DNA of 64,000 nucleotides from Candidatus Krumholzibacteriia bacterium. Lineage in GTDB: Bacteria > Krumholzibacteriota > Krumholzibacteriia > JAJRXK01. Every line of letters begins with the position of its first letter. The stretch's first letter is position 1. The stretch is taken from contig JBGPIA010000002.1 in the NCBI GenBank assembly GCA_041484665.1, positions 42,045-106,044 of the forward strand, in the 5' to 3' direction. Both the position numbers and the translations under genes were made by a program. Under the pieces are notes generated by a model. That model was not told where the DNA came from. It saw only the letters and a program-made list of their open reading frames with translations, and ran no database searches. Below, piece by piece: positions 43,194 to 64,000 of this stretch.

Positions 43194-43619
43194 ATGGAGG
43201 AGATGATGATCGCTGCGACGCTTTTCGACCAGCCCCACATGGAGCTGCTGAAGCGGGCTCTGTCGGCCTATTCGCTGCGCCACCGGGTGGTGGCCGACAA
43301 CCTCAGCAACGTGGGGACGCCCGGCTACCAGGCGCAGGCCGTGGACTTCGAGACGGCGCTTGCCAACGCCGCGCCGCCGTTTCGCCTGCGTGGAACGGTG
43401 ACCGCCCCAGGCCATCTGCCGTTGGGCGTGGCCGCGGAGCCGTCCGCGGCGCGCACGCAGCCGGTGGGCGAGCCGTTCGACAACGGCGTCAACGACGTGA
43501 ACGTCGATCGCGAGATGGGCGAGCTGGTGAAGAACGACCTGGCCTTCCGCATGGCCACCCGCCTGCTCTCCCGGCGTTACCAGGGGCTGCGCATCGCCAT
43601 CACCGGACGCACGCAGTGA
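43194..43619 (+). CDS. flgB: Flagellar proximal rod protein FlgB
   Basis: ...LRHRVVADNLSNVGTPGYQAQAVDFE...VNVDREMGELVKNDLAFRMATRLLS. Confidence 0.88.
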   Translation: MEEMMIAATLFDQPHMELLKRALSAYSLRHRVVADNLSNVGTPGYQAQAVDFETALANAAPPFRLRGTVTAPGHLPLGVAAEPSAARTQPVGEPFDNGVNDVNVDREMGELVKNDLAFRMATRLLSRRYQGLRIAITGRTQ

Positions 43620-43656
43620 CGGGACGCGCGGACCGCCGCGCACCCCGTAGGAGGTC

Positions 43657-44169
43657 TTGACCATGACCATGCGCTTGTTCGGCGCCATCGACCTGAGCGC
43701 GAGCGGCCTGCGCGGCCAGCGCGCCAAGCTGGAGGTGGTGGCCGAGAACATCGCCAATGCCCAGACCACGCGCACGCCGGAAGGGGGCCCCTACCGGCGC
43801 AAGCAGACGGTGTTCACCGCCGCGGCGCCCGAGCAGGCGGAGACGACCCTGCTGCCCTACGGCGGGAACGACTTCTTCCGCCTGCTGCTCACCAACGAGC
43901 GGCACATGGATCGCGGCCGCGAGGCCAGCCAGATCGAGCTGCCGCGCGGCTCGGAGGTGGGCGTGGAGGAGGCGCCGGACGCGACCCGCTTCAAGCTGGT
44001 CTACGACCCCGGGCATCCCGACGCGGACGAGGAGGGCTACGTGCTCATGCCCAACGTGAACATGGTGTCGGAGATGGTGGACATGATCGCGGCCTCGCGC
44101 GCCTACGAGGCGAACGTGAGCGCGATCGAGAGCGCCAAGGACATGTTCCTGCAGGCGCTGGAGATCTAG
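43657..44169 (+). CDS. flgC: Flagellar rod protein FlgC
   Basis: ...FGAIDLSASGLRGQRAKLEVVAENIANAQTTRTPEGGPYRRKQTVF...NVNMVSEMVDMIAASRAYEANVSAIES. Confidence 0.9.
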   Translation: MTMTMRLFGAIDLSASGLRGQRAKLEVVAENIANAQTTRTPEGGPYRRKQTVFTAAAPEQAETTLLPYGGNDFFRLLLTNERHMDRGREASQIELPRGSEVGVEEAPDATRFKLVYDPGHPDADEEGYVLMPNVNMVSEMVDMIAASRAYEANVSAIESAKDMFLQALEI

Positions 44170-44179
44170 GGAGGCCGTC

Positions 44180-44500
44180 GTGAGCGCCGTCAAGGGTATC
44201 ATCGGCGCGGCCCCGGAGCTCGTCGCCAAGGCCTACGAGGCCGCGGCGGGCGTGGGCCCGCAGGTCGAGGCCAGAGCCGCCGGCGGCTTCGGCCAGACGC
44301 TGGCGCGGCTGGTCGGCGACGTCGACCGGCTGCAGGACCATTCCGGCGAGGTGACGCGCCGCCTGGTGGCCGGCGAGCCCACCGACGCCCACGAAGTGAT
44401 GGTCGCCACCGAGGAGGCCGGCCTGGCCTTCAGCCTGATGGTGGAAGTGCGCAACAAGCTCCTCGAGGCGTACCAGGAGCTCATGAGGATGCAGGTCTGA
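44180..44500 (+). CDS. fliE: Flagellar hook-basal body protein FliE
   Basis: ...GGFGQTLARLVGDVDRLQDHSGEVTRRLVAGE...HEVMVATEEAGLAFSLMVEVRNKLLEAYQELMRMQV. Confidence 0.85.
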   Translation: MSAVKGIIGAAPELVAKAYEAAAGVGPQVEARAAGGFGQTLARLVGDVDRLQDHSGEVTRRLVAGEPTDAHEVMVATEEAGLAFSLMVEVRNKLLEAYQELMRMQV

Positions 44501-44550
44501 CGTCGCGGGCGCGAGCCGGCCGCGGCGCGTGAGGCAGAGAGAAAGCGGGC

Positions 44551-46029
44551 ATGGATTCCCTGCAAGCGGTTCTGGAGCGGCTGCGCCGCGTCTGGGCGAG
44601 CTTCTCATTCAACCAGAAGGCGATCCTGGTGATCGTCTTGGGCGCGGCCTTGGTCAGCTCGCTGGTGTTCGTGCGCTGGCTGCGCCAGGACGACATGGTC
44701 GTGCTCTCCAGCGACCTGTCCGCCGAGGACGCCGCCGAGATCCTCGACCAGGTCTCCAAGGCGGGCGTGCGTGCCGAGCTGGGCAACGCCGGCCACACGA
44801 TCCTGGTGCCGGCCAGCGAGGTAGACCGGTTGCGGGTGGGGATCGCCAGCCAGGGGCTCCCTCGCCAGGGGCGCATCGGCTGGGAGATCTTCAACAAGGG
44901 CAACTACGGGATGACGGAGTTCCAGGAGAACGTCACCCTGCGCCGGGCCCTGGAGGGCGAGCTGGCGCGCACCATCGAGAGCATCCAGGGCGTCAAGAGC
45001 GCCCGCGTCCACATCACGCTGCCGCAGCAGAGCCTGTTCTTGCGCGACGAGCGCGCGGCCACGGCGGCCGTGTTGCTCACGCTGCGCGGGCGGGGGCGCC
45101 CGGGGCGGGAGCAGATCGAGGGGATCCAGCACCTGGTGGCCAACGCGGTGGAGGGGCTGCAGCCGGGCAAGGTGACGGTGGTGGACAACTCGGGGGCCGT
45201 GATGAGCAGCGACGACAGCGACGACGCGGCCGGGCTTTCCAGCAAGCAGCTCCGCGTGCGCAAGGAGGTCGAGGACTACCTCGGCGGCAAGGCGGCCGAC
45301 ATGCTGGCTGCGGTGTTGGGCCCGGGGCACTCCATGGTGCGCGTCAACGCCGAGCTGGATTTCGACCGCATCGAGCGCACGACCGAGCAGTACGACCCCC
45401 AGACCGTCGTGCGCAGCGAGGAGCGGACCGACGAGTCCAACCCGGGCGCCGGCGGAACGACCGAGCGATCGCTGACCAACTACGAGGTGAGCCGCACCGT
45501 CCAGAAGGTCCTCAACACCGGTGGCGGCGTCCACAAACTCGACGTAGCGGTCTTCGTCGACGGCAAGCACGCGCCAGCCGCCGATGCCAAGGGCGGCCAG
45601 CCCGCCAGCTACACCCCCCGCACCAGCGAGGAGCTGGACCAGATCCAGCGCATCGTCGCCAAGTCGGTGGGAGTCGACCCCACGCGCGGGGACCTGATCG
45701 AGGTCGTGAACATGCAGTTCGACGTGCCGCAAGCGCCCAAGACCACGCTGCTGGAGAACCCGATGCTGCAGACCGCACCGTCGTTGATCGGTCGCCTGGC
45801 TCTGTTCGCCGTGGCGGCCGTGCTGATCCTGGGGCTGCGCCGCAGCCTGGGCAAGATGGTGCGCGAGGTGTCGCGCCCACTGCCCGACGTGGGTCCGGTG
45901 CGCGGCGCCGCGCTGGCCAGGGCCAAGGCCGAGGCGCGCACGCCGGTGGCCGACATGGAGGACTGGGCCCGCGGTGACCCCGAAGAGGTCGCCAACCTGA
46001 TCAAGGCCTTCGCCAGCTCCGAGGAGTAG
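44551..46029 (+). CDS. fliF: Flagellar MS-ring protein FliF
   Basis: MDSLQAVLERLRRVWASFSFNQKAILVIVLGAALVSSLVFVRWL...GVKSARVHITLPQQSLFLRDE... 492 aa, with a second TM near the C-terminus. Confidence 0.9.
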   Translation: MDSLQAVLERLRRVWASFSFNQKAILVIVLGAALVSSLVFVRWLRQDDMVVLSSDLSAEDAAEILDQVSKAGVRAELGNAGHTILVPASEVDRLRVGIASQGLPRQGRIGWEIFNKGNYGMTEFQENVTLRRALEGELARTIESIQGVKSARVHITLPQQSLFLRDERAATAAVLLTLRGRGRPGREQIEGIQHLVANAVEGLQPGKVTVVDNSGAVMSSDDSDDAAGLSSKQLRVRKEVEDYLGGKAADMLAAVLGPGHSMVRVNAELDFDRIERTTEQYDPQTVVRSEERTDESNPGAGGTTERSLTNYEVSRTVQKVLNTGGGVHKLDVAVFVDGKHAPAADAKGGQPASYTPRTSEELDQIQRIVAKSVGVDPTRGDLIEVVNMQFDVPQAPKTTLLENPMLQTAPSLIGRLALFAVAAVLILGLRRSLGKMVREVSRPLPDVGPVRGAALARAKAEARTPVADMEDWARGDPEEVANLIKAFASSEE

Positions 46030-46033
46030 ACGC

Positions 46034-47035
46034 GTGACGCCGATGACCTCGACGCGTAAGACGGCCATCGTGCTGATCTCGATGGGCTCGCGCATCGCCG
46101 GGGAGATCCTCAAGCGCATGCCCGAGGCGCTGGTGGAGCAGATCACCGCCGAGATCGCCAGCATCAAGCAGGTCACGCCCGAGGAGCGCCGGCTGGTCTT
46201 CAAGGAGCTGCGGGAGTTCCAGGCCAAGATCTCCGCCTTCGACAAGGGCGGCACCGACTTCGCCCGCGAGATGCTCGAGCAGGCGGTGGGCACCCACCGC
46301 GCCAGCACGCTGATCAGCCGCGCCACGGGCTTCGGCGACACCGCAAGCTTCGAGATGCTCAAGAAGGCCGATCCGCTGACGGTGGCCAACTTCCTCAAGG
46401 CCGAGGCCGCCCAGACCGTCGCCCTGGTGCTGGCCCACGTGGACCCGCGGTGGGCGGGGCCGATCCTCGCCCGCCTGCCCAGCACCATGCAGGCCGAGGT
46501 GGCCTTCCGCATGGCGTCCCTCGGCCAGCCCAACCCGGAGTTCGTGCGCGAGGTGGAGCTCGCCCTGGCCAAGGGGGTCAAGGGCGAGTACGAGGCCACC
46601 GTGAAGCAGTACGGCGGCACCAAGCAGGTGGCCGACCTGTTCAACCAGATCGACCAGGAGGTCTGGGGCGAGATCCTCGAGGATATGAAGCGGCTGGACA
46701 ACGACACCGCCGCGCAGGTGAAGAACCTCATGTTCGTGTTCGAGGACATCGTGACGCTCGATGACAAGTTCGTGCAGGAGATGCTCAAGGAGGTCGACAG
46801 CCGCGAGCTGGGGCTCGCGCTGAAGGCCGCCAGCGACATCGTGAAGCAGAAGATCTTCAGCAACATGTCCAAGCGAGCCGCCGCGGGTATCAAGGAGGAC
46901 ATGGAATACACCGGTGCGGTGCGTCTGTCCGAGGTACAGGAGGCGCAGCAGCGCGTGGTCGACGTGCTGCGCCGCCTGGAGGAGGCCGGCACGGTGGTGC
47001 TCAGCGGCGGCAAGGGCGGCGATGTCCTCGTCTAG
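46034..47035 (+). CDS. fliG: Flagellar motor switch protein FliG
   Basis: ...KTAIVLISMGSRIAGEILKRM...QVKNLMFVFEDIVTLDDKFVQEMLKEVDSRELGLALKAASD... (MFxF/EDI region). Confidence 0.92.
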   Translation: MTPMTSTRKTAIVLISMGSRIAGEILKRMPEALVEQITAEIASIKQVTPEERRLVFKELREFQAKISAFDKGGTDFAREMLEQAVGTHRASTLISRATGFGDTASFEMLKKADPLTVANFLKAEAAQTVALVLAHVDPRWAGPILARLPSTMQAEVAFRMASLGQPNPEFVREVELALAKGVKGEYEATVKQYGGTKQVADLFNQIDQEVWGEILEDMKRLDNDTAAQVKNLMFVFEDIVTLDDKFVQEMLKEVDSRELGLALKAASDIVKQKIFSNMSKRAAAGIKEDMEYTGAVRLSEVQEAQQRVVDVLRRLEEAGTVVLSGGKGGDVLV

Positions 47036-47720
47036 CGCGACCGCGGCAACGCCGGCGCACGGCTTCGCGCCCAACGCGGCACCACAGCCAGCGCCCGCCG
47101 CGCCCTTCGTCGAAGAATTCAGCCGGCACGCCTCCGCCCCCTTCCGGGAGCTGTTGGCCGAGACCGCGGCGATGGCCACCGGCAAGGCACTCCTCCCCAG
47201 CGCCGCCGCGCGCGAGGATGTACTGCTGGCCGAACTGGAGCGCATGCAGGGCGCTCTGGTGCGCGCACAGCACGAGAGTGCCGACCTGCGCGCTCAGTGG
47301 GAGGCCGAGCGGGACGGGATTCTGGCCTCCATCGTCCAGGAGCTCCGCACGAACTTCCAGACGCAGATGGAGGAGATCGCGGCGGCCGCACTGCGGCTGA
47401 CGCTGGAGGCGGCCGAGCGGATCGTTCGCCGCGAGCTGGCGGTGGACCCCGAGGCGATCGAGCGCCTGCTGCGCGACGTGCTCTGGCGGCTGGCCGACGC
47501 GCGGTCACTGCGCCTGCGGGTCAGCCCGCAGGACGCGCAGCTGCTGGAGTCGCGCGCGGCGCTGCTGGCGGAGCTGCACGTGGCCGAGGTGGTGCGCGAT
47601 CGCCGCGTCACCTCTGGCGGCTGCTTGCTGGAGTCGGGCGACCGGGCCTGGGATGCCACCGTGGAGGGCCAGCTGGAGCAACTGCGTCTCGCGCTGGCGC
47701 GCCTGCTGGAGAAAGCGTGA
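47022..47720 (+). CDS. fliH: Flagellar assembly protein FliH
   Basis: Position between fliG and fliI. Ala/Glu-rich coiled coil, then ...AERIVRRELAVDPEAIERLLRDVLWRLADARSLRLRVSPQDAQLL. It overlaps fliG by 14 nt. Confidence 0.7.
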   Translation: MSSSSATAATPAHGFAPNAAPQPAPAAPFVEEFSRHASAPFRELLAETAAMATGKALLPSAAAREDVLLAELERMQGALVRAQHESADLRAQWEAERDGILASIVQELRTNFQTQMEEIAAAALRLTLEAAERIVRRELAVDPEAIERLLRDVLWRLADARSLRLRVSPQDAQLLESRAALLAELHVAEVVRDRRVTSGGCLLESGDRAWDATVEGQLEQLRLALARLLEKA

Positions 47721-49045
47721 CCTCCGCGTTGCTGGACGCCGCGCGCTCGGCGGTGCGCAGCGCCGACCTCGTCCGCGGTCGCGGCCGCCTCACGCAGGTG
47801 GTGGGCCTGGTGCTCGAGGTCCGGGGGCTGTGCGCCTCCATCGGCGATCTCTGCTGGATCGAGGTGGGCCGCCAGCTGCCCGAGGTGCCCGCCGAGGTGG
47901 TGGGCTTCCGCGAGGACGCGCTGCTGCTGATGCCCTACGGCTCGCTGATCGGCATCGCCGCCGGGAGCCGCGTGCGCACCCATGGTGAGCGCTTGCGCGT
48001 GCCCGCCGGAGTGGAGCTGCTGGGGCGCGTCCTCAACGCCGTGGGCGAGCCCATCGATGGAGGGCCACCGCTCTCCTGCCGCGAGACCACCAGTCATCTC
48101 GGCCGGGTGCCGCCGCCCTTGGCCCGCCAGCGCATCCGGGAGGTGCAGCCCACCGGCGTGCGCGCCATCGACGCGTTCGTGACCTGCGCGCGGGGCCAGC
48201 GCGTGGGGATCTTCGCCGGCAGCGGCGTGGGCAAGAGCGTGCTGCTGGGGATGATCAGCCGCCACAGCGCGGTGGACGTCAACGTCGTGGCCCTGATCGG
48301 CGAGCGAGGCCGCGAAGTGCGCGAGTTCATCGAGGAGGATCTGGGGCAGGATGGCCTGGCGCGCAGCGTGGTGGTGGTGGCCACCAGCGACGAGAGCGCG
48401 GTCCTGCGCGTGCGGGCCGCCCAGAGTGCCATGGCCATCGCCGAGTGGTTCCGCGAGCACGACCGCAACGTGATGTTCCTGATGGACTCCACCACCCGCT
48501 ACGCCATGGCGCTGCGGGAGATCGGGCTGGCGGTGGGGGAGCCCCCCACGACCAAGGGCTACACGCCGTCCTCCTTCGCCGAGCTCCCGCGGCTGCTGGA
48601 GCGCGCCGGCACCAGCCGCGTCAACGCCATGACCGGCTTCTTCACCGTGCTGGTCGAGGGGGACGATCTCAACGATCCGGTGGGCGACGCGGTGCGTGCC
48701 ATCGTCGACGGGCACATCGTCCTGGCGCGCGACCTGGCCCGGCGCGGGCACTACCCAGCCATCGACGTGCTGGGCAGCGTCAGCCGGCTCATGCCCCAGG
48801 TGACCACGCCCGAACACCGCGCGAGCTCCGCCCGCGTGCTCAACTGGCTGAAGCTGCTGGAGGACCACCAAGACCTGATCACGATCGGCGCCTACACGCG
48901 CGGCCACCACGCCGAGCTGGATATCGCCCTCGATCTGCGGCCGCGCCTGGACGCGTTCCTGCGGCAGGGGATCGGCGAGAAGGCCGATCTCAGCGCCACG
49001 CTGGCGCAGCTTGCCCAGCTGGCCACGCCGGGCGCCACCGGCTGA
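47717..49045 (+). CDS. fliI: Flagellum-specific ATPase FliI
   Basis: Walker A GSGVGKSVLLGMI. ...VVALIGERGREVREFIE...LMDSTTRYAMALREIGLAVGEPPTTKGYTPS. GTG start overlapping the fliH stop. Confidence 0.92.
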   Translation: MTSALLDAARSAVRSADLVRGRGRLTQVVGLVLEVRGLCASIGDLCWIEVGRQLPEVPAEVVGFREDALLLMPYGSLIGIAAGSRVRTHGERLRVPAGVELLGRVLNAVGEPIDGGPPLSCRETTSHLGRVPPPLARQRIREVQPTGVRAIDAFVTCARGQRVGIFAGSGVGKSVLLGMISRHSAVDVNVVALIGERGREVREFIEEDLGQDGLARSVVVVATSDESAVLRVRAAQSAMAIAEWFREHDRNVMFLMDSTTRYAMALREIGLAVGEPPTTKGYTPSSFAELPRLLERAGTSRVNAMTGFFTVLVEGDDLNDPVGDAVRAIVDGHIVLARDLARRGHYPAIDVLGSVSRLMPQVTTPEHRASSARVLNWLKLLEDHQDLITIGAYTRGHHAELDIALDLRPRLDAFLRQGIGEKADLSATLAQLAQLATPGATG

Positions 49046-49086
49046 CCGCGAGCACGTGCCCCCGGCGCTCGCCCAAGAGGATTCGC

Positions 49087-49554
49087 GTGTTCCGGTTCCG
49101 CCTGCAGAAGCTCCTCGACTATCGCCTCGACCAGCTCGAGCAAGCACGGCTGGCCCTGGCCAAAGCCGAGCAGGCGCTGGCGCGCCGGTTCGAGGAACTG
49201 GACGAGGCCAGCCGGGAGCGGGCTCGCCTCGAGCTGACCTATCGCGAGCTCGCGGCCGAGGTGACGGTCCTGCAACTGCAGCGCGCTCTGGCGCAGACGC
49301 GCGCCGCGACCGCGGCGCAAGAGCGTGCCCGCCACGCGGTGCTCGCCGCCGAGCAGGTACGCGCGGCCGCGCACGAGCAGCTCACGCGCTGCCATCGGCA
49401 AGCCCGCATGCTCGAGAAGCTCCGCGAGCGCAGGCTCGCCGTCCATCAGGCCGCGATTCGTGCTCAAGAACGCCGCGCGATGGACGATGTCGGAGGGCGT
49501 ACGCGGGGAGCCCGCTCCCAGCCGGCGGCACTTCCTGCAGGTCGCCGCCGGTAA
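49087..49554 (+). CDS. fliJ: Flagellar export protein FliJ (coiled coil)
   Basis: VFRFRLQKLLDYRLDQLEQARLALAKAEQALARRFEELDEASRERARLELTYRE; position after fliI. Confidence 0.65.
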   Translation: MFRFRLQKLLDYRLDQLEQARLALAKAEQALARRFEELDEASRERARLELTYRELAAEVTVLQLQRALAQTRAATAAQERARHAVLAAEQVRAAAHEQLTRCHRQARMLEKLRERRLAVHQAAIRAQERRAMDDVGGRTRGARSQPAALPAGRRR

Positions 49555-49694
49555 CGCGTGCCTGCGGCCGCGCGCGGTCGGACCGGGCCGGCGCGTCAAC
49601 TCCATCCTTCCCAACCACTTGCGCGAGGTCGAACTCGCGCTGACCCGTGGCATGTGCGTTGCGCTGGGCCGCCCGGGCCCTGGGAGGCGCACGC

Positions 49695-50270
49695 ATGAAG
49701 ACCATCCTGCTCGCCAGCACCGTCAGCTTCCTCCTGATCATGGGAGGCCTGACGCTGTACGCCCGTGGCAAGCGGGCCGTGCCGGTGGCTATGGACGCGA
49801 CGTCGCCCGCGCAGGCACAGGGTCAGGGACCGTCCGCGACGCCGGTGGACGCTGCAGCTGCAGAGCTGGCATTCGCCGCCGTGGAGAACGAGCGCCAGCA
49901 GCTGCAGAAGGAGCGCGACCAGCTCGCCGCGCTGCGCGGCGAGCTGGCGCTGCGCGAGGCGACGCTGCAGACCCAGCGCGATCAGTTGCAGAAGCTGATC
50001 GCCACTCTGCAGCAGGCGCAAACCACCGCCACGACGGCGCAGGCCGCGAGCGCGACGAAGCTGGCGAAGATGTTCGATGCGATGAAGGCCGACGGTGCCG
50101 CCCAGATCCTTGCGACCCTCGACCAAGACACCGCCTTGCAGATCCTCGTGCGCATGAAGGAGCGCGCCGCGGCGAAGGTGCTGGCGGCGCTGCCGTCGGC
50201 CACCGCCGCCGCGCTGAGCGAGCGCCTCACCGAGAAGGGCACCACGCTGGGCATGAAGGGGGAGGGATGA
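49695..50270 (+). CDS. MgtE_N-like flagellar protein (B. subtilis YlxF family), TM-anchored coiled coil
   Basis: MKTILLASTVSFLLIMGGLTLYA (TM), a coiled coil, then ...AKMFDAMKADGAAQILATLDQDTALQILVRMKERAAAKVLAAL. It sits in the same fliJ-ylxF-fliK position as in Bacillus. Confidence 0.5.
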   Translation: MKTILLASTVSFLLIMGGLTLYARGKRAVPVAMDATSPAQAQGQGPSATPVDAAAAELAFAAVENERQQLQKERDQLAALRGELALREATLQTQRDQLQKLIATLQQAQTTATTAQAASATKLAKMFDAMKADGAAQILATLDQDTALQILVRMKERAAAKVLAALPSATAAALSERLTEKGTTLGMKGEG

Positions 50271-52137: not shown

Positions 52138-52878
52138 ATGGCCATCGCCGGTGTCGGTGCCAGTAGCAGCCCGAGCGCGTCAACCAGCGCGGATTCCGGG
52201 CCCAGCGCCGCGAGCAGCGCCGGGCAGCTGCAGTCCACGTTCCTGCAGCTGCTGCTCAAGCAGATGCAGAACCAGGACCCCTTCTCGCCGATGGACAACA
52301 CCCAATTCGTCCAGCAGCTGGCTACCTTCGCCAACCTCGAGCAGCTGCAGGGCCTCAACGACCGGATGCAGCAGAGCCTCGGGCTGGCCGACACGCTCGG
52401 GCAGCTGACGGGCACCATGAACGACAACATGGCCCAGACGCTCAACGCCGCGATGATGAACCTCGTGGGCAAGCGCGTGGCCGTGCCGGGCAACGCGATG
52501 CAGGTGTCGGTCGATCCAAAGACCCAGGAGCCGGTCGTGGGGCGGGTCCTCGTGCGCAGCCCCAGCCCAGGCACGGTGACGGCCGTGGTTCGCGACGATC
52601 AAGGGAAGATCGTCAAGGACCTGGGCGAGATCACACTGACGGCAGGTTTCACCCCGATCCGCTGGGACGGTCGCGACAAGGACAACGTCGCGGTCCCACC
52701 GGGCCGCTACACCGTGCAGGTCACCGACTCCCAGCAAAAGGACATGGGGAGCGCGCTGTTCAGCTCGGGCATCGTGGAGGCCGTGCAGTTCGATACCGGG
52801 TTCACCCGGCTGGTGGTGGGCGGCAAGACGTTTCTGCCCAACCAGGTGGTGGAGGTGGGATTGCCCGACGGCGCGTGA
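52138..52878 (+). CDS. flgD: Flagellar hook capping/assembly protein FlgD
   Basis: ...QLQSTFLQLLLKQMQNQDPFSPMDNTQFVQQLATFANLEQLQGLNDRMQQ... Confidence 0.88.
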   Translation: MAIAGVGASSSPSASTSADSGPSAASSAGQLQSTFLQLLLKQMQNQDPFSPMDNTQFVQQLATFANLEQLQGLNDRMQQSLGLADTLGQLTGTMNDNMAQTLNAAMMNLVGKRVAVPGNAMQVSVDPKTQEPVVGRVLVRSPSPGTVTAVVRDDQGKIVKDLGEITLTAGFTPIRWDGRDKDNVAVPPGRYTVQVTDSQQKDMGSALFSSGIVEAVQFDTGFTRLVVGGKTFLPNQVVEVGLPDGA

Positions 52879-55162: not shown

Positions 55163-55402
55163 ATGATCCACCTGACGCGACGCAGCGGGCAGGACCTGGT
55201 TCTCAATGCCGACCTGATCGAGTCCATCGAGGCCAGCCCCGAGACTTTAGTCGCGCTCGTCACCGGCCGAAAGATGCTGGTGCAAGAGTCGCTCGAGGAA
55301 GTCGTTCGCCGGGTTCTGGAATACCGCCGCCGGATGCGCGCCTATCCGGTGCCGGTGGCGGGCATCCCGGAGTCCGGCGCGGCGGGCGAAGCGGAGCAAT
55401 GA
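55163..55402 (+). CDS. flbD: Flagellar protein FlbD (SwrD-like)
   Basis: MIHLTRRSGQDLVLNADLIESIEASPETLVALVTGRKMLVQESLEEVVRRVLEY matches the FlbD family. Confidence 0.75.
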   Translation: MIHLTRRSGQDLVLNADLIESIEASPETLVALVTGRKMLVQESLEEVVRRVLEYRRRMRAYPVPVAGIPESGAAGEAEQ

Positions 55403-55549
55403 GCCCCGCGTTGCGGCCGCCTGCGGGCGGACGGCGGCGCGGCGCGCGCGGCAGGCGACGCGGATCCGGTCGCCCCTGCCGTCTTCTCGTCCAGGTGCGG
55501 GGCACCGCGGCGCCAGGACGCGCCGCGCGACCGCGCGGGAGGTCATGAC

Positions 55550-56089
55550 GTGGCGCAGGAGCAGTCCCCGGAGGGCGCCGAGCCCGCTAAGAAGGGCAAG
55601 TCGCTGCTGGAGAACAAGCTGTTGGTCATCGCCGCCATCGTGCTGGCGCAGGGCGGCATGGGCTTTGCTGCCGCGAAGTTCCTGATCGCTCCTGCTTTTG
55701 CTCCGCCGGCAGCGCCGGGCGCGGCGCAGGGTGCGGGTCATGGAGGGGGCGAGCCCGGCCCGGACGGGGCCGCCGCAGCGCCCGCCAGCGGACCTTTGGT
55801 GAGCCTCAACGAGATGGTCATCAGTCTCAGCGCTACAGGCAAGCCACGCTACCTGCGCACGACCATCGCGCTGGAGGCGCGTGACGCTGCCGTGGCCAAG
55901 GAGATCGAAGAGCGCCTGGCGAAGTTCCGCGACATCGCCATCATGCGCCTCTCCAGCCACGCGCCCGGCGACCTGGACACCTTCGAGGGCAAGGAAGCGG
56001 TGAAGGCAGACATCAAGACGGCGCTCGCCGGCGACTTCAAGCCGGGCGACCTCCTCAACATCTACTTCTCCGACTTCGTGGTCCAGTAG
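55550..56089 (+). CDS. fliL: Flagellar basal body-associated protein FliL
   Basis: Single TM (LLVIAAIVLAQGGMGFAAAKFLIA), then ...LVSLNEMVISLSATGKPRYLRTTIALEARDAAVAKEIEERLAKFRDIAIMRLSS. GTG start. Confidence 0.8.
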   Translation: MAQEQSPEGAEPAKKGKSLLENKLLVIAAIVLAQGGMGFAAAKFLIAPAFAPPAAPGAAQGAGHGGGEPGPDGAAAAPASGPLVSLNEMVISLSATGKPRYLRTTIALEARDAAVAKEIEERLAKFRDIAIMRLSSHAPGDLDTFEGKEAVKADIKTALAGDFKPGDLLNIYFSDFVVQ

Positions 56090-56104: not shown

Positions 56105-57112
56105 GTGGAAAACCTCTCGCAGGTCGAGCTCGACGCGCTGATCGGTGCCGCAGCGCAGCAGGCCGGCGGGGAGGACCCTGCCGCGGCCGAGGCCGCCGAT
56201 CTTGGGGGGCAGGGGCAGCCGGCCGGGCAGGCGGCGGTCCGCAACTTCGATTTCAACCAACCCAACACCCTCAGCCGCTCGTTCGAGCGCAATCTGCGCA
56301 GCCTGTGCGAGAGCTTCAGCAAGATCGCCTCGCTGTCCTTCACCAATCAGGTGCGCACCAGCTGCGTCGTCTCGTTCGTGAACCTGCGCGTGTTCTCCTT
56401 CGGCGAGGCCTACGCCGGAGTGGAGAATCCCAGCTGCATCGCCGTCTCGACCATGCCCCCGCTCAAGGGCACCATGCTGCTGGTGATCGACGCGGGCATG
56501 ATGTTCTCCCTGTTCACGCGACTGTTGGGCGGGGGGGTGGAGGAGCCGACGCAGATTCGCGACTTCACCGAGCTGGAGATGGGGATGTCGCGGCGCATCG
56601 TCGAGCGCGTGCTGGACCACTTCCGGTCCGCCTCCGAGCGCATCGTGGCGCTCAAGCCGACCGTGTCCCACATCGAGAACAACCCCAGCTACGTGCAGGC
56701 CCTCAGCGACACCGAGATGGTGCTCGCCCTGCAACACTCCATCGGGTTGGATACCCTGCGGGGAACGCTGACGTTCATCCTGCCGCTGGCCGCCTTCGAA
56801 CCGGTGCGCAACCTTTTCGACCCCAAGGAATCCATCGAGCTGCGCGGCTCCGCCGAGAAGAGCCGCGACCGTCGCCTGGTGAGGGCGGCGCTGCAGCGGA
56901 CGGAGGCGACGCTCACCGTCCACTTCGTGCCGCGGCGCGCGCGGCTGCGGGAGGTCCTGGCCCTGAAGGTGGACGACGTGCTGCCGCTGGGCCATCCAGC
57001 GAACCGCCCGCTCACGGTCAATGTGGAACGCAAGCACATGTTCGACGCCGTGGCCGGACGGTCGGGCCAGGCGCGCGCCGTCCGCATCGTGCGCAGGCTG
57101 AAGGAGTCCTAG
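56105..57112 (+). CDS. fliM: Flagellar motor switch protein FliM
   Basis: ...AVRNFDFNQPNTLSRSFERNLRSLCESFSKIASLSFTNQVRT... with a C-terminal SpoA-like domain. GTG start. Confidence 0.88.
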   Translation: MENLSQVELDALIGAAAQQAGGEDPAAAEAADLGGQGQPAGQAAVRNFDFNQPNTLSRSFERNLRSLCESFSKIASLSFTNQVRTSCVVSFVNLRVFSFGEAYAGVENPSCIAVSTMPPLKGTMLLVIDAGMMFSLFTRLLGGGVEEPTQIRDFTELEMGMSRRIVERVLDHFRSASERIVALKPTVSHIENNPSYVQALSDTEMVLALQHSIGLDTLRGTLTFILPLAAFEPVRNLFDPKESIELRGSAEKSRDRRLVRAALQRTEATLTVHFVPRRARLREVLALKVDDVLPLGHPANRPLTVNVERKHMFDAVAGRSGQARAVRIVRRLKES

Positions 57113-57498: not shown

Positions 57499-57846
57499 AT
57501 GGCCGGTGCGGCCCTCACCTGGATCAGCGGCACCCTAGCCGTGCTGGCCCTGGTGCTCCTGCTGGGCCGGTTGGGCCAGTGGGCGCTGCGCCGTGGCGCC
57601 GCCGCGCATCTGGCGGCCGCTACGGTCGGCCAATGGCGCGTCGGGGCCGACGCGCGCGTGCGCGCTGTGCGCGTGCTCGGCTGTGTCTACGTGCTCTACG
57701 AGCGCGGGCGCGAGACCACGCTGCTCACCGCGCTGGCAGCTGCGGACTTCGACACGGCGCTGCAGGGTTCCGCGCCGGCGGGCCCGCTGGCCGGGATCCT
57801 CGGGCTCGCGCCCGGCAAGGGCCGCTCGCGGGTGGCTGCTCCCTAG
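57499..57846 (+). CDS. fliO: FliO/FliZ-like flagellar biosynthesis protein (single TM)
   Basis: Position between fliN and fliP. N-terminal TM ISGTLAVLALVLLLG, then ...RVRAVRVLGCVYVLYERGRETTLLTAL. Confidence 0.5.
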   Translation: MAGAALTWISGTLAVLALVLLLGRLGQWALRRGAAAHLAAATVGQWRVGADARVRAVRVLGCVYVLYERGRETTLLTALAAADFDTALQGSAPAGPLAGILGLAPGKGRSRVAAP

Positions 57847-57991
57847 ACAAGGTTGGCTCGCCGCTGTGCGGTGGAGGCCACCCCGCTCCACGCTCGCGGC
57901 CCCAGCGCGCCCGCAACCCCCTTTCCTTGATCGGGTTGACGGCGGCTGTGGCGCCCCGGGGCGCGGCACACCGGTTGCGCTGGCGCCCAGC

Positions 57992-58989: not shown

Positions 58990-59262
58990 ATGAACGCCGA
59001 GGCTGTGATCGACGTGGCGCGCGACGCACTGTGGACGCTGCTGTTGGTCTCCATGCCGATGCTGCTGGTGGGGATGCTGGTGGGCCTGGTGATCTCGATC
59101 CTGCAGGCTGCCACCCAGATCAACGAGATGACCATGACATTCGTGCCGAAGATGATCGCGGTGTTCCTCACGATGCTGCTGCTGCTGCCGTGGCTGCTGT
59201 CGCACATGATGGCCTTCACCGAGCGCATCTTCGCCCGCATCGCCGCGGTGGGCGGACCGTGA
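58990..59262 (+). CDS. fliQ: Flagellar export apparatus protein FliQ
   Basis: MNAEAVIDVARDALWTLLLVSMPMLLVGMLVGLVISILQAATQINEMTMTFVPKMIAVFLTMLLLLPWL. Confidence 0.9.
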   Translation: MNAEAVIDVARDALWTLLLVSMPMLLVGMLVGLVISILQAATQINEMTMTFVPKMIAVFLTMLLLLPWLLSHMMAFTERIFARIAAVGGP

Positions 59263-60044
59263 CCCTCACCCTGGATCTCGCGCCGCTGCTGCTGGGAGGA
59301 CTCGCCGCCGTGCGGGTCCTCACCTTCTTGATGGCGGTGCCCGCGCTGGGCATCAAAGCGGTGCCCGTGGCGGTGAAGGTCGGGCTGGCCCTGTGGGTCA
59401 CCGCCGGCCTGTTGCCGCAGGTGGTGGCCCAGGGCGCCGCCGTTCCCAGCGCGCCCGGGCCGCTGGCCTTGGCCGTGGCGGCGGAATTCGCCATCGGGCT
59501 GCTGCTGGCCATGGTCGTGGCGTTCGCCATCGGCGCGGTGCAGCTGGCGGGGGAGATCGTCGGGCTGCAGATCGGCTTTGGGATCGTCAACGTGATCGAC
59601 CCGATGAGCCAGCTGCAGGTTTCGGTGCTGGGTCAGCTGTACTACATGCTGGCCGCGCTGGTGTTCGTCGGGATGGACGGGCCTGCCATCGTGCTGCGCG
59701 GCATCGCCGCCAGCTTCTCCGCCCTGCCTCCCGGCGGCATGGCGGTGCGTAGCGCCGGCGTGGCCGCGCTGGTTCTCTCGTTCTCGGGCGTGTTCAGCGC
59801 GGCGCTGCGCATGTCCCTACCGCCGGTCGTGGCGCTGCTGCTGGTGAGCCTGGCCATGGGCATCGTGGGGCGCACCGTCCCGCAGCTCAACATCCTGGTC
59901 GTGGGCTTTCCCGTCCGCATCGCCGTGGGTCTCTTGATCCTGGCGGCGAGTCTGCCGCTGCTGACGCGGGCGGTGTCCGCCGCCCTGGGTGGCCTCGACG
60001 GGCAGCTGGTGGGGATGGCCTGGGGTCTGGCCCCCGCGAGGTAG
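59259..60044 (+). CDS. fliR: Flagellar export apparatus protein FliR
   Basis: GTG overlapping the fliQ stop. Multi-TM. ...AVAAEFAIGLLLAMVVAFAIGAVQLAGEIVGLQIGFGIVNVIDPMSQLQVSVLGQLYYMLAALVF. Confidence 0.85.
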   Translation: MTLTLDLAPLLLGGLAAVRVLTFLMAVPALGIKAVPVAVKVGLALWVTAGLLPQVVAQGAAVPSAPGPLALAVAAEFAIGLLLAMVVAFAIGAVQLAGEIVGLQIGFGIVNVIDPMSQLQVSVLGQLYYMLAALVFVGMDGPAIVLRGIAASFSALPPGGMAVRSAGVAALVLSFSGVFSAALRMSLPPVVALLLVSLAMGIVGRTVPQLNILVVGFPVRIAVGLLILAASLPLLTRAVSAALGGLDGQLVGMAWGLAPAR

Positions 60045-60050
60045 TCGAGG

Positions 60051-61193
60051 ATGGCCGAGGATCTGGCCGGCGACCGCACCGAGCAGGCGACCCCAAAACG
60101 CCGCGACGAGGCGCGCGAGCGCGGGCAGGTGCCGCGCAGCCAGGAGGTCAATTCCACCATCGTGCTCCTGGGTGGTGGGCTGGTGACGCTGGCATGCTTG
60201 GGCTGGATGGGTCAGGGCTTCGCTCGATTGAGCCGCGTGTGCTTCGGCGGGCTGGACGGGGTCCGGCTGGAAAGCCGTGGGGATGGCGTGACCGCGCTTC
60301 GACTATTGGCCAGGGAATCGGGCGTCATCCTGTGGCCGGTGCTGCTCGCGACCCTCGTGTTCGCCACTGGATCGGCCGCTGCGCAGGTGGGTTGGCGCTT
60401 CTCCACCAAGGCGCTGGCGTTTCGTACGGAGCGCCTCAATCCGCTCGAGGGCCTCAAGCGCATGGTCAGCCGTCAGGTGCTGTTCGAGCTGGCCAAGAAC
60501 TTGGCCAAGACGGCGCTGCTCGGCTGGATCGCGGCCGCCACCCTCCAGACTTCGCTGCCCCACGTGCTGGACCTGACTGGCATGGGCGAGCACGACGGCT
60601 GGATGGAAGTCGCCGCCATGGTGCGCACGCTGATGCTGCGCACGCTGCTCGTGCTCGCGGTGCTGGCCACCGCCGACCTGGTGTGGCAGCGCCGGCGTCA
60701 CGAGGAATCGCTGAAGATGAGCAAGACCGAGCTGCGGCAGGAGGCCAAGGACAGCGAAGGCGATCCCCAGATCAAGGCGCGGCTGCGGGCGCTGCAGCTG
60801 GACGCGGCACGCCGGCGCATGATGGCCGACGTGAAGAAGGCCGACGTCGTGGTGGTCAATCCGACGCATCTGGCCGTCGCGCTGCTCTATGACCGCGGCG
60901 AGCCCGCGCCACAGGTGGTGGCCAAGGGCCGGGGTCTGCTGGCCGCGCGCATCGTTTCGGTCGCGCATGAGGCGCGCGTGCCGGTGATCCAGAACATTCC
61001 GTTGGCGCAGGCCCTGTTCAAGGCCTGCCGTATCGGTGACTTCGTCCCGGTGAAGCTGTACCAGGCCGTGGCGGAGGTGCTGGCGGCGGTCTACCGCGCC
61101 AGCCGCAAAGCCGGCCGCCCCGCCAGCCCCGCCGCGCCACGCGCGACCGGCAGGCCGGGCCGGCGCGCGGCGCGGCAGGCGCGGGGAGCGTAG
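60051..61193 (+). CDS. flhB: Flagellar export apparatus protein FlhB
   Basis: MAEDLAGDRTEQATPKRRDEARERGQVPRSQEV...; autocleavage motif VVVNPTHLAV; ...AQALFKACRIGDFVPVKLYQAVAEVLAAVYR. Confidence 0.9.
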   Translation: MAEDLAGDRTEQATPKRRDEARERGQVPRSQEVNSTIVLLGGGLVTLACLGWMGQGFARLSRVCFGGLDGVRLESRGDGVTALRLLARESGVILWPVLLATLVFATGSAAAQVGWRFSTKALAFRTERLNPLEGLKRMVSRQVLFELAKNLAKTALLGWIAAATLQTSLPHVLDLTGMGEHDGWMEVAAMVRTLMLRTLLVLAVLATADLVWQRRRHEESLKMSKTELRQEAKDSEGDPQIKARLRALQLDAARRRMMADVKKADVVVVNPTHLAVALLYDRGEPAPQVVAKGRGLLAARIVSVAHEARVPVIQNIPLAQALFKACRIGDFVPVKLYQAVAEVLAAVYRASRKAGRPASPAAPRATGRPGRRAARQARGA

Positions 61194-61196
61194 GCG

Positions 61197-63344
61197 ATGG
61201 CCGGCGAGCCCCGCGGTCTCACCAGCGACCTGATCCTGTCCCACACCAACGTGTTCGCGGCGCTGGCGTTGGTGGGCGTGCTGGCGCTCATGATCGTCCC
61301 GATCCCCACACCGCTCCTGGACGTGCTGCTGACGTTCGACATCGCCGTGGCGATGGTGGTGCTGCTGGTCACCGTCTACCTCAAGCAGCCGCTGGAGTTC
61401 TCCGTCTTCCCGTCGCTGTTACTGATCGTCACGCTGTTCCGCCTGTCGCTCAACATCGCCAGCACGCGCCTGATCCTCACCAACGGCGACGCGGGGCGGG
61501 TGATCGAGGCCTTCGGCCACTTCGTCGTGGGCGGCAACTATGTCATCGGCACCATCGTGTTCGTGATCCTGGTCGTGGTGAACTTCGTCGTGATCACCAA
61601 GGGCGCGGGCCGCATCGCCGAGGTCGCCGCCCGCTTCACCCTCGACGCCATGCCTGGCAAGCAGATGGCCATCGACGCCGATCTCAACTCCGGACTGATC
61701 ACCGAGGCGCAGGCGCGTACGCGCCGCGAGCGCATCGCGCGCGAGGCGGAGTTCTACGGCGCCATGGACGGCGCGAGCAAGTTCGTGCGCGGCGACGCTG
61801 TGGCCGGCATCGTCATCACCCTGGTCAACGTGGTCGGCGGGCTGGTGATCGGGGTCGTGCAGCACGGGCTGCCGCTGGGCGAGGCCGCGCGCCGCTACAC
61901 GCTGCTGACGATCGGCGACGGGCTGGTCACCCAGGTGCCTGCGCTGGTGGTGAGCACCGCGGCCGGAATGCTCGTGACCCGCTCGGCCAGCGACTTCAGC
62001 CTGGGCGAAGACATCTCGCGCCAGATCCTGCGCGACCCGCGGGCATTGTTCGCCAGCGCCGGAGCGCTCTTGGCGTTCGCCGCGATCCCCGGACTGCCCG
62101 CCGTGCCTTTCCTGCTGCTGGCGGGGGGCACGGCCGTCGCGGCATACGTCTCGCAGGGCCGGCGCAAGCGCGACGCGCAGCGGGAGCAGAAAGAGCTCGA
62201 GGCGACCGAGGCGGTTGCGGAGCAGGCACCGTCCGCGCCGGCTGGCGAGGAGATCTTCGTGGTGGACCGTCTCGAGCTGGAGATCGGCTACGGCCTGATT
62301 CCGCTGGTGGACGCCACGCGCGGCGGCGACCTGCTCACACGGGTCACGAACGTCCGCCACAAGACCGGCGCCGAGCTTGGCATGCAGGTGGCGCCGATCC
62401 GCATCCGCGACAACCTCCAGCTGTCGCCGCAGGAGTACGCCATCAAGCTCAAGGGCGTGGAGATCGGCCGCTTCGCCCTGCGCACGGACGCGCTGCTGGC
62501 CATGCGCGCCAAGGAAGGTGGGACCCAGATCGAGGGGACTGCGACGACCGAGCCGGCCTTCCATCTGCCCGCACGGTGGATCAAGCCCGAGCATCGCGCT
62601 GCCGCCGAGCTGGCGGGGTACACCGTGGTCGAGCCCAGCGCCGTCGTCGCCACGCACCTCACCGAGGTGATCCGGGCCCACGGCGACGAGATCCTCACGC
62701 GCCAGGACGTCAAGGAGATGATCGAGCGCCTCAAGGCCCACGCGCCCGCCCTGGTCGAGGAGCTGTTCCCCGAGAAGATCAGTCTCACGCTGCTCCACGG
62801 CGTGCTGCGCGGGCTGCTGCACGAGCGTGTGCCGGTGCGCGACATGGTGACGATCCTGGAAACCCTCGCCTCGGCCGTGGGGGCCACCAACAACGTCGAA
62901 GCGCTGGTGGAGCGCGTGCGCGAGGCGCTGGCGCGCAGCCTCTCCAGCCAGCACTGCGACGCCACGCGGACGTTGTGGTCCATCACGGTCCATCCCGAGA
63001 CGGAGCAGGCGCTCTACGTGGCATTCCACGAGTCGGAGCGGACCGGCAGCGTGGTGATGGACCCCGGTCTCGCCGAGCGGTTCGTCACCGCGCTCGGCGC
63101 GTGCGTGGAGCGCACGATCCGCGCCGGGCGCACGCCTTTGCTCTTGGTCTCCAGTCCAATCCGGCCGTTCACGCGACGCCTGATCGAGGCGTCGTTCCCC
63201 ACGGTGGCGGTGCTCGGCTACACCGAGATCGCCGCCGGCTACCAGGTACGTTCGCTTGGGACGGTGATTGCTCATGCCAAGCCAGAATCCACTTCCGCTG
63301 CCCTCCAGCAGGCCGCCGCGTACGCGGGCGGTGCGCGCCGCTAG
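61197..63344 (+). CDS. flhA: Flagellar export apparatus protein FlhA
   Basis: ...VIGTIVFVILVVVNFVVITKGAGRIAEVAARFTLDAMPGKQMAIDADLNSGLI... (FHIPEP motif). 715 aa. Confidence 0.92.
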   Translation: MAGEPRGLTSDLILSHTNVFAALALVGVLALMIVPIPTPLLDVLLTFDIAVAMVVLLVTVYLKQPLEFSVFPSLLLIVTLFRLSLNIASTRLILTNGDAGRVIEAFGHFVVGGNYVIGTIVFVILVVVNFVVITKGAGRIAEVAARFTLDAMPGKQMAIDADLNSGLITEAQARTRRERIAREAEFYGAMDGASKFVRGDAVAGIVITLVNVVGGLVIGVVQHGLPLGEAARRYTLLTIGDGLVTQVPALVVSTAAGMLVTRSASDFSLGEDISRQILRDPRALFASAGALLAFAAIPGLPAVPFLLLAGGTAVAAYVSQGRRKRDAQREQKELEATEAVAEQAPSAPAGEEIFVVDRLELEIGYGLIPLVDATRGGDLLTRVTNVRHKTGAELGMQVAPIRIRDNLQLSPQEYAIKLKGVEIGRFALRTDALLAMRAKEGGTQIEGTATTEPAFHLPARWIKPEHRAAAELAGYTVVEPSAVVATHLTEVIRAHGDEILTRQDVKEMIERLKAHAPALVEELFPEKISLTLLHGVLRGLLHERVPVRDMVTILETLASAVGATNNVEALVERVREALARSLSSQHCDATRTLWSITVHPETEQALYVAFHESERTGSVVMDPGLAERFVTALGACVERTIRAGRTPLLLVSSPIRPFTRRLIEASFPTVAVLGYTEIAAGYQVRSLGTVIAHAKPESTSAALQQAAAYAGGARR

Positions 63345-64000
63345 CCTGCACCGGGCTCTCGAGCAGGTGCGGCTAGCCTACGGCCCGGACGCGCTGGTCC
63401 TGCAGACGCGCAACGTGGTGTCGCGCGCGCAGCACGGCCTGGCGCCGCAGACGGAGGTCGAGGTGATCGTCGCCGACCCCGCAGCCGGCGAGGAGCTCGG
63501 CCCGTACTCCGTGGCGGGGCCGCTGGTCGCTGCGCCGGTGGACGCCGACGCGCAGGACGGGCCGGATGGGGGCGCGAGCGGGGAGCTTGCGCGCCAGCTC
63601 GCGCGCCTGGAGCGGTTGGCGTACCGCGTGGAGGAGATGTCCGCCGCGCTGTCGCCGGCTGCGGAGCTGGCACAGGGCTACCCGCTTGCCGACCGCCTGC
63701 GGGCCGCAGGCGCCGGTGAGGCGACGGTCCGGCACGTCGCGGCCTCGTTCGCGCTGGCGGCCCGCGGGGCCGCGCCCACCGAGGCGCTGGCCCGCCGGCA
63801 CCTGGGCACCTTCCTGCGCACCACGCGTGCGGCGTCCTTCGCGCAGATCCGCGGCGAGCACTGGCTGCTCGGCCGCGCCGGCGTCGGGAAGACGACGCTC
63901 GCGCTGCACCTGGCGGCCCAGCTGCAGCGCGCCGGGCGCAAGCCGGCGGTCGTGGCACTCGCGCCGCGCCACGATGGGGACGTGCGCCGCATCGAAGCGG
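63274..64000 (+). CDS. flhF: Flagellar GTPase FlhF, 3'-truncated at the window end; start uncertain (ATG 63274 or GTG 63331, overlapping the flhA 3' end)
   Basis: N-terminal B-domain-like AVRAASLHRALEQVRLAYGPDALVLQTRNVVSR...EVEVIVADP; later ...LLGRAGVGKTTLALHLAAQL (P-loop). The frame stays open to the end of the window. Confidence 0.65.
   Translation, partial: MPSQNPLPLPSSRPPRTRAVRAASLHRALEQVRLAYGPDALVLQTRNVVSRAQHGLAPQTEVEVIVADPAAGEELGPYSVAGPLVAAPVDADAQDGPDGGASGELARQLARLERLAYRVEEMSAALSPAAELAQGYPLADRLRAAGAGEATVRHVAASFALAARGAAPTEALARRHLGTFLRTTRAASFAQIRGEHWLLGRAGVGKTTLALHLAAQLQRAGRKPAVVALAPRHDGDVRRIEA

Follow-up and report, generated by a model that had tools for sequence, protein, structure and literature searches.

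The 64,000-nt stretch of contig JBGPIA010000002.1 that we analysed (the window, at its full length) ends in a flagellar gene cluster that is real and complete. Its 23 genes, contiguous and all on the forward strand, begin with the ATG of flgB at 43194 and continue into flhF, where the window ends. Their order is flgB-flgC-fliE-fliF-fliG-fliH-fliI-fliJ-ylxF-fliK-flgD-flgE-flbD-fliL-fliM-fliN-fliO-fliP-fliQ-fliR-flhB-flhA-flhF (5' part), which is gene for gene the order given by the initial annotation of this DNA. Chance cannot produce a colinear match of 23 genes and, since the intergenic gaps do not exceed 154 bp, no foreign gene is inserted. In all likelihood the window carries the main flagellar cluster of a high-GC diderm in or next to Krumholzibacteriota, with a widespread colinear order and, as far as the sequence indicates, control by a sigma-54 cascade.

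Genes were called by codon-position GC (GC3), the window containing many spurious open reading frames (ORFs), and the calls were checked against Pfam and NCBIfam. The predicted products would provide the proximal rod, the MS ring, the C ring, the export ATPase complex and the hook, including hook cap and length ruler, together with YlxF/FlbB-like and FlbD/SwrD accessory proteins, FliL, the export gate (FliOPQR, FlhB and FlhA) and an FlhF-like protein.

Proteins identical to those of the window are present in the Joint Genome Institute (JGI) metagenome 3300052992, of which one contig (L001) extends about 10 kb past the window end, and in the NCBI metagenome-assembled genomes (MAGs) GCA_041496785.1 and GCA_041493075.1. 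Three relatives were compared: GCA_029262065.1 (loci L169 and L087), GCA_039714075.1 (L088), which carries an FlhA homologue (P0241) named 'Candidatus Krumholzibacteriota', and a contig of 70.5% GC (L170) with a FliI homologue (P0274) named 'Candidatus Krumholzibacteria'. For the wider comparison of diderm gene orders, 80 species-representative loci around FliI homologues, taken among the matches listed, were mapped with iterated profile hidden Markov models. The closest FliI match in this sample has 56% identity, and the Krumholzibacteriota relatives are not part of it. All coordinates are collected in Table 1.

Identity of the less conserved genes

The initial annotation had made its reading depend on the calls for ylxF, flbD and fliO, and these calls hold: flbD is clear, ylxF passes the MgtE_N cut-off and fliO is probable. 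The ylxF product, encoded between fliJ and fliK, combines a transmembrane (TM) helix, a coiled coil and an MgtE_N-like domain, as a YlxF/FlbB-like protein should. Its Pfam MgtE_N score of 26.7 bits lies narrowly over the cut-off of 25.9, and against the NCBIfam equivalog collar_FlbB (NF047368) it reached 30.6 bits, far under the cut-off of 110. Homologues occupy the slot after fliJ in at least 62 loci from many phyla among the matches listed, and also in L088, L169 and L170; a metagenome scan with YlxF gave no match. FlbB was described as a spirochaete-specific collar protein (PMC11750108), and the wider YlxF/FlbB-like family may merit comparative study.

FlbD, which follows flgE and scores well above the cut-off of its family PF06289, retains R6, N15, I19, E20, E23, P26 and T28, the core residues singled out in a structural study of SwrD (PMC13232269), with D27 replaced by E. 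According to the same study, about 62% of PF06289 in Pfam belongs to Bacillota, and about 90% of SwrD in Pfam to Bacillota, Actinomycetota and Spirochaetota (PMC13232269).

The gene at the fliO position is probably fliO. Taken alone, the window protein scored 14 bits (E = 0.055) against Pfam FliO (PF04347), the cut-off being 22 bits, and the proteins at this position in the relatives, taken singly, had no Pfam match. An exhaustive search of 1.8 billion representatives returned only ten homologues. Pfam FliO is matched by four of these (best E 1.2e-5) and is the one family found repeatedly among the ten. The AlphaFold model shows a TM helix and a four-strand sheet (predicted local distance difference test, pLDDT, 82.7); a structure search of the PDB with this model gave no match at E ≤ 0.001.

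As had been stated from the DNA, FliN takes the place of FliY and cheY is absent. FliMN_C is the sole domain of the 127-aa FliN, without CheC, and the protein aligns with positions 269-373 only of the FliY model, its C-terminal 105 residues. No cheY lies between fliN and fliO, the stop of fliN at 57496 directly preceding the start of fliO at 57499.

A profile made from the post-fliI ORFs of 64 other loci gives the fliJ gene (49087-49554) 56.8 bits. The longest ORF after fliI (49011-49643) was considered as fliJ and rejected: it is off-frame, its translation is rich in Arg and Pro and it has no match in Pfam or NCBIfam.

Two products of the cluster have an unusual length. FlgE is long (687 aa), as it is in the relatives (687-691 aa), and since the relatives share this length the inserted domains are a trait of the lineage; a metagenome scan with the FlgE alignment found distant lineages only, at no more than 39% identity over the full length. 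FliP has 323 aa, against 247-276 aa in the relatives, with a low-complexity, Ala/Pro-rich segment of about 75 aa after the signal peptide.

A widespread gene order

The run flgB...fliI-(fliJ slot)-ylxF-fliK-flgD-flgE...fliL-fliM-fliN recurs across the 80-locus sample, in full where the contig reaches and otherwise in its first part. Among the matches listed, it was found in Bacillota, Symbiobacteriaceae, Halanaerobiales and Actinomycetota, and also in diderms: Desulfobacteraceae (L026), Deltaproteobacteria (L032, L033), Bdellovibrionales (L031), Acidobacteriota (L062, L082), Planctomycetota (L045, L055, L064, L079), Spirochaetia (L039, L075), Nitrospinota and Armatimonadota. In at least nine diderm loci (L031, L037, L039, L050, L052, L062, L075, L079, L082) an NtrC-type gene adjoins flgB; therefore, an NtrC/sigma-54 module before a fla-like cluster is common.

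The order from flgB to flhF is thus a widespread colinear arrangement and probably ancestral; Liu and Ochman (2007) reportedly treated it so. Because it occurs across phyla, we attribute the likeness to B. subtilis to common descent and not to mosaicism. The initial annotation had taken the combination of a Firmicute order with diderm traits for an informative mosaic; this does not stand, the same order being present in many diderm lineages and the whole arrangement being common to Krumholzibacteria genomes. Nor are L and P rings, NtrC regulators and sigma-54 foreign to Firmicutes, as had been supposed: L/P-ring genes are present in diderm Firmicutes, and SigL and enhancer-binding proteins (EBPs) in B. 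subtilis and clostridia.

Lineage and shared neighbourhood

The closest homologues with a phylum name point to Krumholzibacteriota. For FlhA, 13 relatives at 67-70% identity carry no phylum label, and all further matches named to phylum (55-57%) are Krumholzibacteriota, -ia or -iia. For FliI, the matches named to phylum, at 60-62% identity, are all Krumholzibacteri*, and identity to the L169 protein is 70%. The relatives of the RNase R-type protein encoded upstream are found on the contigs that also carry the FlhA relatives; its further matches, below 40%, are distant FCB-type phyla and Vicinamibacteria.

The synteny comparison proposed with the initial annotation gave the order already described in diderm phyla and, in the Krumholzibacteria relatives, the whole arrangement. 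L169/L087, L170 and L088 share a histidine kinase (HK)-EBP pair, two ORFs, a short HK-EBP pair, the core cluster, a 687-691-aa FlgE, flbD and a divergent flhF. The shared neighbourhood continues past flhF with a small two-TM ORF, fliA, two HDOD genes, a third EBP gene, a UPF0164 gene and an SLT/LysM gene.

The GC content of the window (71%) agrees with the range published for Krumholzibacteriota MAGs (69.2-71.1%), which carry flagellar and chemotaxis genes (PMC10936416). It is uniform throughout, at 68-74%, which argues that the cluster is native and was not imported. On the basis of the flagellar proteins, the synteny and the GC content, we place the organism in Krumholzibacteriota or in a close sister lineage. 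The envelope would be diderm, since the L- and P-ring genes flgA, flgH and flgI are present (ChapFlgA 45.1 bits, FlgH 159.7 bits, FlgI 391 bits). The earlier suggestion of a Myxococcota- or Gemmatimonadota-like high-GC diderm was therefore right as to GC content and envelope, and Krumholzibacteriota belong to the same Fibrobacterota-Chlorobiota-Bacteroidota (FCB) supergroup as Gemmatimonadota, but FlhA and FliI place the closest relatives in Krumholzibacteriota and in neither of the two phyla named.

Regulatory genes and putative promoters

Upstream of the core cluster, as the initial annotation had noted, the window contains the L/P-ring genes, within a second flagellar operon, and NtrC-family regulators. 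The filament genes follow on the other strand, then GNAT and GT2-TPR genes, and then the first HK-EBP pair (HK1-EBP1); the second (HK2-EBP2) adjoins flgB. The use of sigma-54 proposed earlier agrees with three NtrC-type EBPs, of which the third lies in L001, and with GG-N10-GC sites upstream of flagellar genes, most of them conserved in position (Table 1); a further site precedes fliA, outside the window, in L001, L087 and L088. The proposed sites were singled out only by their intergenic position and their conservation in relatives.

From this arrangement, we infer that the flagellar genes are under a tiered sigma-54 to sigma-28 cascade like that of polar flagellates. HK1/EBP1 would fire the promoter at 39545, which would head a unit of the TPR-like gene, orf116, HK2, EBP2 and flgB...fliJ. 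Either EBP, or both, would next activate the internal promoters at 49648 (ylxF-fliK-flgD-flgE...) and 57964 (fliPQR-flhBAF), together with those at 19212 (flgFG-AHI...) and before fliA, after which sigma-28 would drive fliC. The pairing of each EBP with a promoter is a putative one, the sites being known as conserved motifs.

Directly upstream of the sigma-54-like site and flgF, we also observed genes for a protein with a PilZ domain and for a hybrid receiver-PAS-histidine kinase, which may link cyclic di-GMP or two-component signalling to the flagellar genes.

Alternative readings

Several observations weigh against the reading of the window as a sigma-54-controlled cluster from Krumholzibacteriota or its neighbourhood. 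Sigma-54-like motifs are no more frequent in the window than expected by chance (71 observed, 78 expected), no such site was seen directly before flgB, and rpoN was not seen within the window. The assignment to the phylum draws on flagellar proteins, synteny and GC content, and the RNase R-type protein encoded upstream has relatives at 52-64% identity without phylum label, its next named matches, below 40%, including none from Krumholzibacteriota. In addition, a 45-taxon neighbour-joining tree of FlgC, FliF, FliG and FliI, in which no Krumholzibacteriota were included, puts the window on a long, isolated branch. A weak pairing with Acidobacteriota in this tree (two taxa, 51%), obtained in the absence of close relatives, was not relied on.

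The RNase result fits a host from another phylum of the FCB group or its neighbourhood (Gemmatimonadota, Eisenbacteria, Zixibacteria or an unnamed sister), in which only the flagellar genes would be Krumholzibacteriota-like. We consider this unlikely. The named RNase R matches do come from Zixibacteria, Gemmatimonadota, Longimicrobiales, Eisenbacteria and Vicinamibacteria, the closest FlhA relatives have no phylum label and FliI reaches only about 60-62% with named Krumholzibacteria; but these RNase R matches, below 40%, have extra N-terminal domains and may be a different paralogue, the synteny with Krumholzibacteria reaches non-flagellar genes and the GC content fits published Krumholzibacteriota. 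A high-GC diderm member of Bacillota, Limnochordia- or Symbiobacteriia-like, is suggested by the Symbiobacteriaceae loci (GC 63-65%), which are among the better matches listed for several proteins, and diderm Firmicutes with L/P-ring genes exist. However, FliI shares only 54-55% identity with Symbiobacteriaceae but 70% with L169 and 60-62% with named Krumholzibacteria, the extended synteny is with Krumholzibacteria and the distant RNase R matches are from FCB-type phyla and not from Bacillota; such a host is extremely improbable, and the idea was dropped on the FlhA and FliI homologue results.

It is also very unlikely that a Firmicute-type fla/che cluster has been combined with diderm features, for instance by horizontal acquisition of the core from a Bacillota donor. 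This would account for the flbD genes of the 80-locus sample, found among the matches listed only in Bacillota, Symbiobacteriaceae, Halanaerobiales and Actinomycetota, for the best scores of FliJ, FlbD and FliN, which are with Symbiobacteriaceae and other Bacillota, for the large share of Bacillota in PF06289 and for the lack of motAB after flbD, as in B. subtilis. That sample, however, does not contain the true relatives: the nearest phylum-named matches of FlhA and FliI are all Krumholzibacteri*, and three relatives have flbD in the same slot. Besides, among the matches listed NtrC2, FliF, FlgD, FliL and YlxF score best with diderm lineages, the neighbour-joining tree does not nest the window in Bacillota, GC is uniform, and cheY, a CheC-domain FliY and flhG with che genes are all absent.

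Stator genes and the FlhF-like protein

In all three relatives, motA-motB lie between flbD and fliL; in the window and, independently, in L001 this slot is a spacer of 147 bp. Between 17 kb and the window end, and in the further 10 kb of L001, neither motA/motB nor flhG or che genes are present. Since the relatives carry motA-motB in the slot, the stator genes were lost from the cluster or relocated recently and in this organism specifically, and their B. subtilis-like absence is not a trait shared ancestrally with Bacillus. Borrelia has motAB after flbD, and among the matches listed the flbD-fliL gaps of Bacillota loci (1.0-1.7 kb) fit motAB at the same place, unlike B. subtilis.

Judged by its sequence, the protein at the flhF position is a divergent homologue with degenerate GTPase motifs. 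It falls short of the 174-bit FlhF equivalog cut-off (Table 1), and SRP54 matches with 26.1 bits over residues 179-258 only. The motifs G1-G4 are not intact: G1 is present, the Asp of G2 and the TKLD of G4 are missing, and G3 has DTPC in place of DTxG. The P-loop varies within the lineage: the window has GVGKTT, L087 has GVGRTT and L088 has none.

Past the window end, flhF is completed in L001 and followed by an 84-aa ORF, fliA, two small ORFs, two HDOD genes, a CheY-like receiver gene and the third EBP gene. No flhG/MinD-type gene follows flhF in L001, L087 or L088. Its usual place is occupied by a conserved protein of 77-84 aa with two predicted TM helices, whose position recalls that of flgV in the flhFG-flgV-fliA cluster of Campylobacterota (PMC9321776) and which had no family match in the Pfam and NCBIfam scans; the two helices rule out FlgM for the 84-aa ORF. 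The two small ORFs after fliA are also conserved in L087 and L088 and have no family match. In the first, the N-terminus is conserved (..TTLAQ.GNV.R.QQGQQ), the middle is rich in K, R and E, and an IDxKV-type motif lies at the C-terminus; the second begins with a TM helix.

Other loci in the window

The window also contains a bacterial microcompartment (BMC) locus, the RNase II/R-type protein and two long ORFs of high GC3 (about 650-825 aa, overlapping as called) with no Pfam match at E ≤ 0.01. The RNase II/R-type protein has RNB and S1 domains but lacks the OB/CSD domains that typical RNase R carries at its N-terminus; it has about 50 metagenomic relatives at 52-64% identity, followed by a sharp drop to below 40%. 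Rfam and tRNA scans of the window gave two tRNAs only and no riboswitch.

Table 1. Genes, putative promoters and other features of the window and of corresponding contigs (positions refer to the window unless a locus is named)
Feature	Position	Strand	Evidence or remark
flgB (proximal rod)	43194-43619	+	Pfam Flg_bb_rod 21.3 bits; 57% identity to flgB-position gene of L169
flgC	43663-44169	+	Flg_bbr_C 56.8 bits, Flg_bb_rod
fliE	44180-44500	+	Pfam FliE 90.2 bits
fliF (MS ring)	44551-46029	+	YscJ_FliF 201.9 bits, YscJ_FliF_C
fliG	46034-47035	+	FliG_N, FliG_M, FliG_C; identical protein in GCA_041496785.1
fliH	47022-47720	+	Pfam FliH 71.1 bits; 232-aa gene call in L086
fliI (export ATPase)	47717-49045	+	ATP-synt_ab 281.5 bits, T3SS_ATPase_C
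fliJ, GTG start	49087-49554	+	Pfam FliJ 31.7 bits, cut-off 28.4
ylxF/FlbB-like, ATG start	49695-50270	+	N-terminal TM helix, coiled coil, MgtE_N-like C-terminus
fliK, 619 aa	50267-52126	+	Flg_hook 44.7 bits; 619-aa gene call in L001
flgD	52138-52878	+	FlgD, FlgD_ig
flgE (hook protein), 687 aa	53033-55096	+	Flg_bb_rod, LlgE_F_G_D1, FlgE_D2, Flg_bbr_C
flbD/swrD	55163-55402	+	PF06289 82.6 bits, cut-off 24.7
flbD-fliL spacer, 147 bp	55403-55549	.	motA-motB slot of relatives
fliL	55550-56089	+	Pfam FliL 62.2 bits
fliM	56105-57112	+	FliM 117.9 bits, FliMN_C
fliN, 127 aa	57113-57496	+	FliMN_C 85.7 bits; TIGR02480 92.9 bits, cut-off 84.05
fliO (probable)	57499-57846	+	one TM helix; GC3 0.88 in frame; position before fliP
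fliP, 323 aa	57992-58963	+	Pfam FliP 270.3 bits; gene call in L001
fliQ	58990-59262	+	Bac_export_3 106 bits
fliR	59259-60044	+	Bac_export_1 186.3 bits
flhB	60051-61193	+	Bac_export_2 378.5 bits
flhA	61197-63344	+	FHIPEP 871.4 bits
flhF-like, 5' part; 371 aa in full, continues past window	63331-64000	+	TIGR03499 FlhF 64.7 bits, cut-off 174
FlhF-position gene, in full and in relatives	L001:12135-13250; L087:12231-13211; L088:12084-13229		
Two-TM protein between flhF and fliA	L001:13257-13511; L087:13217-13471; L088:13253-13486		
Two small ORFs after fliA	L001:14534-14860 and 14864-15292		
HK1, start approximate	35621-37855	+	HisKA/HATPase_c
NtrC-type EBP1	37861-39264	+	Response_reg, Sigma54_activat, HTH_8; 71% identity to L169 counterpart
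TPR-like secreted protein	39578-40619	+	Pfam; boundaries set by tblastn against L169/L170 genes
orf116	40616-40963	+	boundaries by tblastn against L169/L170 genes
HK2 (short HATPase_c kinase)	about 41050-41784	+	Pfam; tblastn against L169/L170 genes
NtrC-type EBP2, directly upstream of flgB	41781-43154	+	Pfam; tblastn against L169/L170 genes
Second flagellar operon, flgF-flgG-flgA-flgH-flgI-flgJ (rod-binding part)-flgN-flgK-flgL-fliW-csrA	19212-28521, including promoter site	+	
Filament genes fliS-fliD-flaG-fliC	28865-32010	-	
Sigma-54-like site TGGCACATCAGTTGC	19212	+	perfect consensus, about 28 nt before flgF
Sigma-54-like site TGGCATTGCTCTTGC	39545-39559	+	19 nt upstream of ATG of TPR-like gene; at orthologous gene 36 nt (L169), 45 nt (L170)
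Sigma-54-like site TGGCATGTGCGTTGC	49648-49662	+	about 31-32 nt upstream of ylxF ATG; L169: 10/11 site at 31 nt
Sigma-54-like site CGGCACACCGGTTGC	57964-57978	+	upstream of fliP; fliO-fliP gap sites also in L087, L088, L170
Sigma-28-like site TCAA-N15-GCCGATAT	112 nt upstream of fliC	-	
PilZ-domain protein and hybrid receiver-PAS-histidine kinase	17087-19090		
BMC locus	10295-13458		BMC-domain protein, EutN/CcmL, aldehyde dehydrogenase, tandem-BMC protein
RNase II/R-type protein	14879-17074		RNB, S1
Two long high-GC3 ORFs	2071-6029	-	

Significance and comparison with known systems

What had looked 'Bacillus-like' is the usual colinear order of flagellar clusters and typical of Krumholzibacteriota, so that the window holds an ordinary cluster and no unexpected Bacillus/Gram-negative mosaic. 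It provides a well-resolved example for a candidate phylum that has been little studied, of modest value for flagellar evolution. Mildly novel are the FlbD and YlxF/FlbB-like genes beside L and P rings, the degenerate FlhF without adjacent flhG and the conserved two-TM protein before fliA. We put forward tentatively, as a possibility that we do not favour, that the Krumholzibacteriota-type flagellum joins SwrD/FlbD and an FlbB-like MS-ring-associated protein with a classical external flagellum with L and P rings, that a GTPase-dead FlhF and a two-TM protein, FlgV-like by position, replace placement by FlhF-FlhG, and that in the window organism the stator genes were moved or lost from the conserved flbD-motA-motB-fliL slot. 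If this were true, SwrD and FlbB-like proteins would count among the general components of the ancestral motor and would not be adaptations to a thick wall or to periplasmic flagella.

Like the three relatives, the window has no flhG and no cheY, and in common with them it has sigma-54-like sites upstream of fliP, fliA and the TPR-like gene. Unlike them, it has no stator genes in the motA-motB slot and its FliP carries the extra Ala/Pro-rich segment; fliK-flgD-flgE, present here, are absent from this slot in L088.

The initial annotation held that the window reproduces the B. subtilis fla/che operon. The gene order does: flgB...flgE-swrD(flbD)-fliL-fliM-...-fliO(fliZ)-fliP-...-flhF, with no motAB inside, is common to both. 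In gene content the operon is not fully matched, since the window lacks cheY between fliY and fliO(fliZ), has FliN instead of a CheC-domain FliY and, after flhF, has neither flhG(ylxH) nor cheB-cheA-cheW-cheC-cheD-sigD, fliA following instead a gene for a small membrane protein. Moreover, B. subtilis uses sigma-A and sigma-D promoters, whereas control by sigma-54 and EBPs appears probable here, beside L and P rings.

The flgB operon of Borrelia burgdorferi also belongs to a diderm and shares the colinear order, an FlbB-type gene after fliJ, flbD/swrD after flgE and FliN. Unlike the window, Borrelia has motA-motB after flbD and flhG after flhF, a sigma-70 promoter and periplasmic flagella without L and P rings. 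FlbB and SwrD are described in PMC11750108 and PMC13232269.

Polar flagellates differ from the window in FlhF, which is degenerate here and has no FlhG nearby. With them (FlrA-FlrBC, FleQ-FleSR, FlgSR) the window shares HK and NtrC-type EBP pairs beside flagellar genes, fliA downstream and GG-N10-GC promoters, here putative, before rod, hook and export genes; sigma-54/two-component flagellar hierarchies of this kind are reviewed in PMC3930126 and PMC7064773.

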